Shown in pieces: positions 1,040-59,672 of a DNA stretch of 64,000 nt (positions within the stretch are counted from its first letter, which is position 1; each line of letters opens with the position of its first letter). Source of the stretch: Nitrospinaceae bacterium. Its GTDB lineage: Bacteria; Nitrospinota_A; UBA7883; JAJDBK01. The notes beneath the pieces are model-generated. The model saw nothing but the letters and a program-made list of their open reading frames with translations. It had not been told where the DNA came from and did no database searches. The translations under genes and the position numbers were made by a program. The stretch covers positions 29,086 to 93,085 of the forward strand of contig JAJDBK010000063.1 of assembly GCA_029261405.1 (NCBI GenBank). Direction: 5' to 3'.

Positions 1040-1280
1040 CACATGAGCCTAAGTGATACTATTTTCTTTCTCTGGGAGCCTGTCAGACGCAGGGGTTCAT
1101 CAGCGAAGTGGTACGAGCAGGGCGAAAAGGAGCGGATTTGAGTCAGGTGTTTTGGTGCATTGAGGTGAATAGCGGAACTATTCGCCAAAAAAGAGCTATA
1201 AATCTGTTCGAGACTGTTTGTCGCTATGGTCGCAACACTTTGCAATAGAATCATCCTAAGCCCGACAGACTCCTGAAAAC
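1040..1280. repeat. Non-coding MITE-like repeat, copy A, with imperfect terminal inverted repeats (family shared with 45385..45590)
   Basis: Left end GGAGCCTGTCAGACGCAGGGGTTCATCAGCGAAGTGG and right end ...GAATCATCCTAAGCCCGACAGACTCCTG are imperfect reverse complements of each other. Internal blocks (TTGAGTCAG, TTTGAGGTG, TTCGCCAAAAAAGAGC) recur in copy B. Only a spurious minus-strand ORF overlaps it. Confidence 0.6.
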
Positions 1281-43979: not shown

Positions 43980-45365
43980 ATGGAAATCAACGAAAAATCT
44001 ATCGACAACCGCCAGGCTTATGATGAGCTTATAAGGGCGCTTGAGATTGTATCCAAAGGCTTGCCCGCGCCATATTTACCACCTGTAAACGACCCTAAAC
44101 TTAATTCGATCTCACGCCTCGTTACAGAAGTGTCGGAAAAGAACCAAACGGCGTTTGAAAACCTCCGGTCAGTCAACAGGTCCCTTAGAACCGAAAAGGA
44201 ACGGCTCGAAGACAAGGTGGAGATCCTGGAAGGCGAACTCGAACAGGCTGTCGACAGCGCCAAGGTCGGCGAGCGGATGAAAGAAGAGTTCATAGCCAAT
44301 ATCAACCATAAACTACGCACACCTCTAACCTCCATTATAGGCTTTACCTCGCTATTGTTGCAGGACAAGGAAGGTATGATGGACACGAGAAAAATTGCCG
44401 AATATCTTGGCATTGTTCTTCAGGAGGGGGAGCGACTTATGGGAATGGTCGAGACCATGATCAATCTGGCCCGTATCAACTCCGGAGAGTCGCCCCCTGC
44501 GTTCAAACTGTTTGGCCTCAATAAGCGCATCACAACCGAATCCCCGAAATGGAGCAACGACCTTCCAAAGGACGTTGCTCTCTACCTTGATCTGGACGAA
44601 TCTGTTGGCTCCATCGTCGCCGATCCCGGGATGATACTCACGGCGATAGGGATGTTGATCTCTAACGCCTCGGCCTGCTCACCTGCGGGTAGCGTAATAA
44701 CAGTAACCACATGTAATATGGGCGATAATGTGGTCATAGAGGTCATAGATCAGGGGGAGGGGCTTCCGGGGGAGGCTCTCGACTCCATATTCCAGAATTT
44801 CACCCAACACAACAAACCGGATGGAAGTGGAGGTCTGGGCGTCGGGCTATCGCTTGTCCGTTCGATCGCGTGGTTGCACAAAGGGGAAGTCTCCGTCACA
44901 AGTGAAGAGGGAGTGGGGAGCCGGTTCAAGGTAACGATCCCCTACAACCCGGATGCGGCCTATGATGCGCTCACCACAAGCTCCAATATGGAGAGAAGTC
45001 TGGCGTTGGTAGCCGATGACGACATGAACTCCCGACTGCTTCTCAAGGGCATGTTGAAAGAGAAATTCGATATTGTAGAGGCCGCCGACGGTCATGAGGC
45101 CGTAAGGATGTGTGCAAAACATAAACCTGCGATTCTGCTTGCGGACATGGCCATGCCGGAAAAGGACGGGATTGCGACAATCCTGGAGATTCGGTCAAAC
45201 CCTGAAATCTGCGATACTCCCATCCTGGTCCTTTCGGCAAAAACATCGCCGAAAGTGGTCGAAGCGGCTTATAGCGCCGGAGCCAACAGCTATCTTAGCA
45301 AACCGTTCACAAAAGAGGAGTTGCTACGCGACATATATGCAATCCTTGGCGTAAAACAGACGTAG
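43980..45365 (+). CDS. Hybrid sensor histidine kinase/response regulator (cytoplasmic; coiled-coil, HisKA, HATPase, REC)
   Basis: H-box ANINHKLRTPLTSI; HATPase G-boxes; C-terminal receiver with DD...D...K pattern (LVADDDMNS...LLADMAMP...). Confidence 0.8.
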   Translation: MEINEKSIDNRQAYDELIRALEIVSKGLPAPYLPPVNDPKLNSISRLVTEVSEKNQTAFENLRSVNRSLRTEKERLEDKVEILEGELEQAVDSAKVGERMKEEFIANINHKLRTPLTSIIGFTSLLLQDKEGMMDTRKIAEYLGIVLQEGERLMGMVETMINLARINSGESPPAFKLFGLNKRITTESPKWSNDLPKDVALYLDLDESVGSIVADPGMILTAIGMLISNASACSPAGSVITVTTCNMGDNVVIEVIDQGEGLPGEALDSIFQNFTQHNKPDGSGGLGVGLSLVRSIAWLHKGEVSVTSEEGVGSRFKVTIPYNPDAAYDALTTSSNMERSLALVADDDMNSRLLLKGMLKEKFDIVEAADGHEAVRMCAKHKPAILLADMAMPEKDGIATILEIRSNPEICDTPILVLSAKTSPKVVEAAYSAGANSYLSKPFTKEELLRDIYAILGVKQT

Positions 45366-45384
45366 TAGCCCCGATTATTCCGCT

Positions 45385-45590
45385 AGGAGTCTATCGGACT
45401 TAGGGGTTCGTTAGCGAAGTGGCGCGACCACAGCGATAAGGTTTTGAGTCAGATTTATTGCACTTTTGAGGTGTAATCGCCGTGGCCACGCCACTTCGCC
45501 GAAAAAGAGCGGATAATTTGGCCAAAACTGGGCCAACGGCGTGGTCGCGCCACTTGTAGCAGAATCATCCTAAGTCCGACAGGCTCCTGG
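45385..45590. repeat. Non-coding MITE-like repeat, copy B, with ~46 bp imperfect terminal inverted repeats
   Basis: Left end AGGAGTCTATCGGACTTAGGGGTTCGTTAGCGAAGTGGCGCGACCAC. The reverse complement of the right end is CCAGGAGCCTGTCGGACTTAGGATGATTCTGCTACAAGTGGCGCGACCAC. Internal blocks are shared with copy A. Confidence 0.65.
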
Positions 45591-46646
45591 TGAATAGTCC
45601 ATAACTCTTCTGCGAGCGGTAAACCCCGCATCCTCCACAAGCCTTCTTATCTCCTTTTCCGTCAATCTGAAACTTACCCCGGCCGATGCGACGACATTCT
45701 CTTCGATCATCGTCGAACCCATGTCGTTGGCGCCGAAATATAAGGAGAGCTGGGCAATCTTCGCGCCCTGGGTCACCCATGACGCCTGAATGTTATCTAT
45801 GTTATCAAGATAGAGGCGGGAGACGGCCAGCGTTTTTAGATACTCGAACCCGCCGGTCTCCGCCCTACCTTCAAGGTCGGTATTCTTCGGCTGAAACGGC
45901 CAGGGGATAAAGGCGGTAAAGACACCAGTCTCGTCCTGCAACTCCCTTATCCGTCCGAGGCTTTCGATCCTCTCCCTCAAAGTCTCCTCGTGACCGAACA
46001 TCATGGTGGCCGTTGCCCTCATTCCCTGAAGACCCGCCTGACGCATCACCTCTATCCATTCGTCCGCGCTACACTTGTTCGGGCTAACGATGTCCCTGAC
46101 CCGGTCCACAAGGATTTCTGCGCCACCACCCGGTATCGAGTCAAGGCCGGCTTTTTGCAACCTTGCGATGGTGTCAGCTATCGAGAGTTTCGAGATGCGG
46201 GAGATATGCGCGATCTCAGGCCCGGAGAAACCGTGGATACCGATTCCCCGCCCCTTGATAACCCGCAAAAGGTTTTCGTACCACTCTAACTGAAGTTTCG
46301 GATGCAATCCCCCCTGTAGCAGAATCCGTTTTCCACCCAGTTTTATTGTCTCGTCTATCTTTTCAAGTATCTGATCATCCGTGATGAGATAAGCGTCACC
46401 GTGACCGGGGGTCTTGTAAAACGCGCAGAACCGGCAGGCGGAGACACATACGTTTGTATAGTTGACGTTCCGGTCAACTATATATGTAACAACGCCGTCC
46501 GGGTGTTTTCCTCGACAGAGAGTGTCCGCCGCCTTTCCGATGGCCAGAAGCTCGTGCGACTTTAAAAGGGCCAGTGCGGAATCGTCGTCAAGACGCTCTC
46601 CCTCAAGAACGCCCTTGAGAATTGCATCAACCGTCTTTATCGACAT
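45570..46646 (-). CDS. Radical SAM enzyme of the futalosine menaquinone pathway (MqnC/MqnE family)
   Basis: CVSACRFCAF (CxxxCxxC) cluster; ~358 aa with MqnC/MqnE/CofH-like architecture; ubiE is elsewhere in the window; the last 7 codons and stop codon lie inside the repeat TIR. Confidence 0.6.
   Translation of the reverse strand: MSIKTVDAILKGVLEGERLDDDSALALLKSHELLAIGKAADTLCRGKHPDGVVTYIVDRNVNYTNVCVSACRFCAFYKTPGHGDAYLITDDQILEKIDETIKLGGKRILLQGGLHPKLQLEWYENLLRVIKGRGIGIHGFSGPEIAHISRISKLSIADTIARLQKAGLDSIPGGGAEILVDRVRDIVSPNKCSADEWIEVMRQAGLQGMRATATMMFGHEETLRERIESLGRIRELQDETGVFTAFIPWPFQPKNTDLEGRAETGGFEYLKTLAVSRLYLDNIDNIQASWVTQGAKIAQLSLYFGANDMGSTMIEENVVASAGVSFRLTEKEIRRLVEDAGFTARRRVMDYSPGACRT

Positions 46647-59583: not shown

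Positions 59584-59672
<89 letters not shown>

Follow-up and report, generated by a model that had tools for sequence, protein, structure and literature searches.

Two intergenic palindromes as copies of a widespread hairpin MITE family that is probably mobilised by an IS1182-type transposase

The 64-kb stretch of DNA that was analysed here (the window) carries two odd intergenic palindromes, which raise the question of what kind of element they are and what has spread them. A sequence-only reading had taken the downstream one for a miniature transposable element with inverted repeats (MITE), with a second copy in the same window, and had named a structured intergenic RNA as the alternative. 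Both members of this two-copy family proved to be real, and their boundaries could be sharpened to those given in Table 1. Copy B comprises 202 bp, and copy A, previously noticed as a diverged copy at about 1040..1280, comprises 199 bp; the two lie in equal orientation and share 69% identity over 209 aligned columns. Common to both are 19-nt terminal inverted repeats with the consensus GGAGYCTGTCGGRCTTAGG. With up to three mismatches this consensus is matched four times in the window, once per element end, against 0.03 matches expected from shuffles, and the 26-nt right end is matched twice against none expected. No third copy was found in the 64-kb window, neither by the end-pattern search nor by a covariance model of the wider family.

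On the plus strand, copy B starts with GGAGTCTATCGGACTTAGG and its final letters are CCTAAGTCCGACAGGCTCC. The imperfect terminal inverted repeat of ~46 bp that had been described for this copy was resolved by the repeat finder into 20-nt arms with 90% complementarity (45385-45404 / 45569-45588) and a perfect inner pair of 15 nt (45417-45431 / 45541-45555), within a pairing that runs over nearly the full length of the element. Copy B also carries a third, internal arm segment (45414-45437 / 45476-45499 / 45541-45555), so that the left arm can pair either with the right arm or with the middle segment to give alternative folds; in the minimum free energy (MFE) structure of the minus strand, the left arm is paired with the middle segment. 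As the first reading had it, there is no credible ORF: copies A and B contain only short, overlapping ORFs on both strands, none longer than 82 aa, and no protein-level signal or coding homology was found in either copy. Because the two copies have diverged by 31% and their ends and flanks are decayed, both are likely to be old insertions that no longer move, and to represent a ~200-bp subfamily of a widespread 162-bp form that is described below.

Table 1. Coordinates of the two MITE copies, their parts and flanks, and the adjoining mqnC gene in the window
Feature	Position	Strand	Basis or remark
Copy B of the MITE	45386..45587	+	sequence; plus strand is the better-folding 'G strand'
Copy B, left terminal inverted repeat, GGAGTCTATCGGACTTAGG	45386..45404	+	one mismatch to consensus; pairs with 45569-45587
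Copy B, right terminal inverted repeat, minus-strand reading GGAGCCTGTCGGACTTAGG	45569..45587	-	0 mismatches; identical to the IS1182-type end in L206
Copy B, subterminal left arm	45405..45437	+	partner 45541-45568, alternatively 45476-45499; inverted repeats, MFE structures
Copy B, subterminal right arm	45541..45568	+	15-nt inverted-repeat pair, 100% complementary
Copy B, left flanking TA	45384..45385	.	context gCTA-GGAG; half of the target-site duplication
Copy B, right flanking TG	45588..45589	.	decayed TA; junction CCTGG
mqnC ORF	45570..46646	-	Pfam Radical_SAM and CofH_C
mqnC, last six codons (PGACRT) and TAG stop, from the element end	45570..45587	-	ORF; alignment with 11 MqnC relatives
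Copy A of the MITE	1075..1273	+	orientation as copy B, more decayed; 69% identical to B
Copy A, left terminal inverted repeat, GGAGCCTGTCAGACGCAGG	1075..1093	+	3 mismatches to consensus
Copy A, right terminal inverted repeat, minus-strand reading GGAGTCTGTCGGGCTTAGG	1255..1273	-	0 mismatches
Copy A, apex hairpin, GAATAGCGGAACTATTC	1167..1183	+	conserved ATAG-N5-CTAT tip of the family
Copy A, left flanking TG	1073..1074	.	TG/TG flanks concordant
Copy A, right flanking TG	1274..1275	.	TG/TG flanks concordant

Copy B is situated between convergent genes; it starts 21 bp past the stop of a gene that encodes a hybrid histidine kinase/receiver. The earlier description of this copy as lying just 3' of a gene stop does not hold on its other side, where the minus-strand mqnC ORF runs 18 nt into the element and terminates at a TAG inside the right end. 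Eleven MqnC relatives end in ...RRxMxY(E/T)xL(E/D), and the window protein in ...RRRVMDYS-PGACRT; judged from this alignment, copy B has taken the place of the final few mqnC codons and supplies the stop, a small local consequence. That the stop falls inside copy B agrees with a general property of the element ends, which within 19-25 nt close all three incoming frames by TA+G at the junction, TAG at 16-18 and TGA at ~21-23; elsewhere, too, the junction (TA+G) is the exact stop of many ORFs that flank copies in other genomes. Copy A is located 72 bp after a GHMP-kinase gene, which is probably ispE, and 57 bp before a gene for monomeric isocitrate dehydrogenase; only weak promoter-like matches were detected near it. 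No MqnC relative that was found shares more than 68% identity with the window protein, the named ones among the closest being labelled Nitrospinota, Nitrospirae or Desulfobulbaceae, and the source appears to be a lineage without close sequenced relatives in the databases searched.

We were curious to know whether these ends recur elsewhere, as would be expected of a mobile element. A scan of species-representative genomes (one genome per species) with the 21-nt right end as query located the same ends at no fewer than 119 loci, spread over many phyla and with several loci in some single MAGs. The hosts among the matches listed comprise Gamma-, Beta-, Delta- and Zetaproteobacteria, Nitrospirota, Spirochaetes, Armatimonadota, Gemmatimonadales and Victivallales, and also include Geobacter and Thermodesulfobacteriota. 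The many gammaproteobacterial hosts include the sulfur oxidisers Thiohalomonas, Lamprocystis, Thiocapsa, Ca. Thiodiazotropha and Ca. Venteria, and the betaproteobacterial ones are Massilia glaciei, Telluria and Ca. Rhodoferax. At least 6-8 loci each were recorded for MAG S141_33, the SuakinDeep MAG and Massilia glaciei, and many matches are found no more than 150 bp from a contig end, a placement typical of repeats. The source genome itself contributes two copies in the 64 kb of the window, and a public short-read (Logan) contig with the window's mqnC terminates within copy B, which suggests that the element is a repeat in the source genome as well. In the SuakinDeep Gammaproteobacteria MAG (L017, L027, L042, L052, L059 and L060), ~100 bp on each side of the MITE are likewise repeated between contigs at 93-99% identity, so that the MITE lies inside a larger repeat unit there.

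When ends were paired among the matches listed, 70 copies had a length of 155-170 bp with a sharp mode at 161-163 bp, and the ~200-bp window copies represent a longer variant in which both arms are extended by 15-19 nt at mirrored positions. Judged by a crude ORF map, almost every copy is intergenic, most commonly between convergent genes (23 copies), followed by tandem settings (15-17 co-oriented and 14 anti-oriented copies) and divergent ones (14 copies). Clustering of all ORFs at the loci listed (at least 119) revealed no recurrent gene beside the MITEs, and the solo ends among these loci are truncated remnants without an adjoining transposase. Unrelated interiors bounded by the same ends were also encountered, namely a spirochaete type of 203-234 bp, forms shortened by deletion to 96-123 bp and others containing nested inserts, as would be expected if the transposase reads only the ends. 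The 203-234-bp type (L038, L047, L049, L100, L108 and L112; Spirochaetes and others) has an off-centre hairpin and an unpaired tail, and its unrelated interior suggests that MITEs have arisen from these ends more than once. At one locus of Ca. Rhodoferax mariagerensis (L026, 4672-6412), an IS110-family (DEDD-type) element, whose transposase frame is split across several ORFs, interrupts the MITE just past its 20-nt left end. A filled site (L041) could be compared with an unfilled orthologous one (L032); the flanks are 87% identical, but the intergenic region differs by another ~65 bp. Whole-element BLAST searches against plasmids, phages and E. coli genomes gave no match, and in viral contigs the end followed by GGAT was matched 0 times, while the 17-nt end gave five coincidental coding matches in addition to L206, a contig that is treated below. 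Taken as a whole, the shuffle controls, the more than 100 homologous copies elsewhere, the absence of a protein-level signal and the short, overlapping ORFs refute a chance palindrome or a duplicated gene fragment as the origin of the window copies, and nothing was found in favour of either.

The flanks of these copies are informative about the target. In the common orientation the copies read cTA-GGAG...CTCC-TAg (hyphens mark the element boundaries). The flanks are TA/TA in 48 of 90 copies from the matches listed and the full CTA/TAG in 44 of 90, the exceptions mostly differ by one transition (TG or CA), and the spacer between neighbouring copies is exactly TA. The first G and the last C of the element are invariant and the outer c and g are variable; thus it is TA that is duplicated, with CTAG as the preferred target. 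A 4-bp CTAG duplication with GAG...CTC ends, as in IS5-like elements, was considered and rejected, since the non-CTAG flanks vary and the element's initial G and final C stay constant. Read from these junctions, the element inserts at TA, preferentially within CTAG, and duplicates the TA. Neither window copy has clean TA/TA flanks, as copy B is flanked by TA/TG and copy A by TG/TG; both are decayed but compatible with a TA duplication, and concordant TG/TG flanks occur in three copies of the family, copy A included. Decayed duplications mostly changed from TA to TG or to CA, which yields CCTGG or CCAGG junctions, and this decay looks like an erosion of CTAG of the Dcm/very-short-patch type. 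In the window, CTAG occurs at 13 sites where base composition would predict ~249, a ~19-fold depletion. With a size below 300 bp, no coding capacity, terminal inverted repeats and a target-site duplication in the family, the two segments are MITEs by each of these features, as had been supposed from copy B and its second copy.

Which enzyme could move them was approached through the ends. A 37-nt end query run with BLAST against plasmids (E <= 10) was the only query that found an insertion sequence (IS) in Mesorhizobium, with matches at four places on pMspAR07d of Mesorhizobium sp. AR07. One of these places is a 1595-bp IS with the ends GCAGCCTGTCGGACTTAG... and ...CAGTCCGACAGGCTGC and the flanks cTA...TAg, and its 457-aa transposase matches NCBIfam IS1182 with 352.9 bits (cutoff 270) as well as the Pfam families DUF772, DDE_Tnp_1 and DDE_Tnp_1_6. 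The clade of this IS is very abundant in metagenomes: 80 metagenomic loci were examined and yielded 66 full-length relatives of 1.5-1.9 kb with the ends GCAGCCTGTCGGACT. CTA/TAG flanks are present in 60 of these 66 copies, and the variants TTA/TAG, CTA/TAA and CTA/TAC show that TA is the duplicated unit of the IS as well. The MITE end agrees with the Mesorhizobium IS and its 66 metagenomic relatives at 17 of 19 positions; at end position 2 this abundant clade has C where the MITE has G (GCAG versus GGAG form).

The exact GGAG end was encountered in two further places, each followed by the start of an IS1182-type transposase. In L206, at a contig end, 19 of 19 positions match; the sequence reads cTA-GGAGCCTGTCGGACTTAGG, and 54 nt further on an ORF starts with MGERFINIDRETP, which fits the N-terminal pattern xxFxxIDRETx of the clade. 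In L211/L212, from a Gammaproteobacteria MAG, 16 of 16 positions match; here ccTA-GGAGCCTGTCGGACTTT is followed after 76 nt by MARFIQYDRHQQYLLPPSVDEWLPEDHLAR..., with a DUF772 match, and the ORF is broken after ~69 residues. The IS1182 relic on the Gammaproteobacteria HGW-3 contig (L211, 2700-2884) ends in unrelated AT-rich sequence just before the contig end, and this sequence may be another insertion. A relative from Balneolaceae has kept only the core GTCGGACTT. Hence a full-length IS with matching ends, of the sort that could supply a transposase in trans, does exist in the IS1182 family, although full-length copies carry the GCAG form and the GGAG form is seen only on truncated left ends. 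A complete GGAG-type IS was not recovered beyond the contig-end fragment (L206) and the broken relic (L211/L212). Three scans to extend L206 returned L206 itself or unrelated genes only, and a search for an L206-type transposase with a 43-aa query (13 real residues and a family-consensus tail) returned only short N-terminal IS1182 fragments, none with the L206 N-terminus. Neither the window nor the 0.8 Mb that surround MITE copies at the loci from the scan, which number at least 119, was found to contain an IS1182 transposase. Furthermore, past ~17 nt the MITE showed no resemblance to either the left or the right end of the IS; ends and target are shared with IS1182 elements, while the missing internal homology does not agree with a derivation from IS1182 by internal deletion.

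From the shared ends and the shared TA/CTAG junctions we conclude, at a probability of roughly 80%, that both window segments are copies of a MITE moved in trans by an IS1182-family DDE transposase. TA duplication and CTAG targets are classically tied to another family, IS630/Tc1-mariner, and a Stowaway- or RUP-like MITE mobilised by a transposase of that kind would display the same duplication and the same CTAG preference. The assignment to IS1182 follows the same argument by which RUP was assigned to IS630-Spn1, so that precedent could equally be cited for an IS630 origin (PMC2229807). We nevertheless consider such an origin very unlikely, as 16-19 of 19 end positions agree with IS1182-family elements, IS1182 elements make identical TA/CTAG junctions, and there is no IS630-type gene near the copies at the loci listed (at least 119). 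As to what the first reading had named as refuting, copies beyond these two exist, a related IS exists and coding homology does not account for the similarity. The MITE reading accounts for the two palindromes, the altered MqnC C-terminus and the short-read assembly breaks at copy B. In mechanistic terms, an IS1182-type DDE transposase supplied in trans would bind the 19-nt ends (GGAGCCTGTCGGACTTAGG), cut the element out and insert it at a TA within CTAG, with duplication of the TA.

The long stem between the ends was analysed separately. Folding, which the first reading had proposed as a check, gave one long hairpin for the plus strand of copy B, with an MFE of -113.6 kcal/mol (z = -10.7) that none of 200 shuffles reached; pairing extends over nearly the full length. 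The minus strand of copy B reaches -98.8 kcal/mol, and the fold of copy A is weaker (-75.6 kcal/mol). A consensus structure of 54 pairs was derived from an alignment of 66 distinct canonical copies, in which compensatory double changes keep 38 of the 54 pairs. Standard pairs occupy 94.4% of the cells, compared with 77% in column shuffles, and 0 of 500 shuffles match the observed alignment on any measure; when partner columns were slid by 1-3 positions, standard pairs fell to 47% or less. Substitutions in the element track base-pairing, not codons. The covariation is located in the two long inner helices and the apex (ATAG-N5-CTAT) because the ends are nearly invariant.

The hairpin is also polar. 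On the strand starting GGAGYCTGTCGGACTTAGGnGnTCGTAGCGARG, 297 G·U cells face 63 A·C cells (roughly 5:1), and the excess recurs in the subfamily consensus sequences (96 to 19) as well as in private deviations (61 to 23). This strand folds better by ~15 kcal/mol on average and is the better strand in 64 of 71 oriented copies. It corresponds to the window plus strand for both copies, on which the covariance model R1 scores 80.5 bits for copy B (42.6 on the minus strand) and 40.8 bits for copy A (27.8 on the minus strand). With respect to neighbouring ORFs, the family copies are oriented at random on a crude ORF map, as the tandem counts given above show, and neither a conserved sigma-70-like promoter consensus nor an IHF site was found inside the element across the family. 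The strand polarity of the hairpin thus has no explanation from gene orientation, an internal promoter or an IHF site.

A full-length hairpin kept by covariation, with one favoured strand, is what would be expected if the element were primarily a structured RNA (for example a small RNA or a hairpin for mRNA stabilisation or processing) that spread for the RNA's use and whose inverted ends are simply the base of the stem; co-transcribed ERIC and Correia repeats are known RNA hairpins (PMC2229807). To this extent the alternative raised by the sequence-only reading could apply as an added layer. The remaining observations speak against an element that is primarily an RNA and leave this improbable. 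Copy A and copy B have no gathering-score match in Rfam, copy B has none even at E <= 10, and a canonical copy gives at that threshold only weak matches to microRNA-precursor hairpins, which we regard as noise. The orientation relative to neighbouring ORFs is random, and the family lacks a conserved sigma-70-like promoter, an IHF site and a 3' terminator-like T-run; no terminator-like site was found in 45300-45700, nor with copy A on either strand. In addition, the most conserved part is the 19-nt end that is common to IS1182 elements and accompanied by TA duplications, and the same ends bound unrelated interiors. The window's sole Rfam gathering-score match is an 86-nt tRNA with a long variable arm (59584-59669, plus strand, 51.7 bits).

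Strand-specific conservation of a hairpin together with G·T tolerance would also fit recognition of a folded single strand, as in REP/BIME- or attC-like palindromes that serve as single-stranded DNA substrates of a tyrosine (HUH/RAYT) or integrase-type enzyme instead of a DDE transposase. Long perfect terminal inverted repeats and a 2-bp duplication are unlike REP/RAYT or IS200/IS605-type elements, the ends belong to a DDE IS family, and no recurrent gene adjoins the copies at the loci listed; we therefore judge this origin extremely unlikely.

Within the preferred reading, that of a MITE served by an IS1182-family transposase, the strictly kept length of 162 bp, the compensation in 38 pairs and the surplus of G·U on one strand exceed what end recognition by a transposase needs. 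We infer a role of the hairpin in the propagation of the element, namely while one particular strand of it is single-stranded. Whether it is a working part of the element and no by-product, with a polarity such that one specific strand must fold single-stranded for the family to persist, we would answer only tentatively and with more doubt than belief. The folded strand could be fold-back DNA that presents both ends to an IS1182-type transposase as one duplex, or it could be an RNA made from every copy; in either form, propagation would have an extra need for the folding of one particular strand. If true, this polar hairpin would account for the fixed 162-bp length across phyla and the symmetric arm extensions, and for the 38 compensated pairs and the roughly fivefold prevalence of G·U over A·C, and it would mean that a DDE-family MITE is mobilised through a step that depends on structure and is specific to one strand. 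The strand-biased, covarying hairpin thereby turns into a testable question, namely whether the fold-back structure of a MITE is under selection and at which step. In at least nine bacterial lineages the ends of the family are nearly invariant, and its tie to the little-studied IS1182 family offers, in the MITE ends and an IS1182 transposase, a concrete substrate and enzyme that could be tested together; several copies are present in Massilia glaciei B448-2, a cultured host.

With IS1182-family insertion sequences such as the 1595-bp IS of pMspAR07d, the window elements share the terminal 16-19 nt, G[G/C]AGCCTGTCGGACTT, and the cTA...TAg junctions, whereas they are only ~200 bp long, have no transposase and are dissimilar past the ends. 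ISKpn6 is a distant member of the same family. Among known MITEs, RUP of Streptococcus pneumoniae was attributed to IS630-Spn1 from shared ends and target, and it is likewise a small, non-coding, TA-flanked, multi-copy intergenic repeat whose IS link was inferred from ends and target (PMC2229807). It differs in IS family, sequence and host range, as the present family is spread across many phyla and its covarying stem is much longer. ERIC/IRU elements of enterobacteria (~127 bp) have TA termini, form a stem-loop over their whole length and are intergenic, as are the elements described here, and their transcripts can alter mRNA stability (PMC2229807). In ERIC, however, the perfect end measures 7 bp in contrast to 19 nt here, and a candidate parent IS family has been identified for the present elements; a sequence relation to ERIC was not found, as blastn gave no match in 5,426 complete E. 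coli genomes (28 Gb), which are ERIC carriers. Correia/NEMIS elements of Neisseria (100-155 bp) resemble the present family in their inverted ends (~24 bp), TA duplication and length variants, which there concern internal blocks, and they also give hairpin transcripts (PMC2229807). Their sequence is unrelated and they are confined to one genus, whereas the present family crosses phyla and has no IHF-site or promoter consensus. Stowaway MITEs of plants and animals, which derive from Tc1/mariner, show TA duplication and strong fold-back along the whole element as well, and differ in being eukaryotic and in belonging to another transposase superfamily. Hairpin MITEs with TATAG ends and no parent IS were reported in a paper on Thiomargarita, and these can be set beside the present family by description only. 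A full-text search for the end sequence in the paper library that was available found no paper, and the family is apparently undescribed and distinct from ERIC, Correia/NEMIS and RUP, the comparison with the Thiomargarita MITEs being one of description only. In kind, the element is a conventional piece of mobile DNA that resembles the classic bacterial hairpin MITEs ERIC, Correia/NEMIS and RUP.
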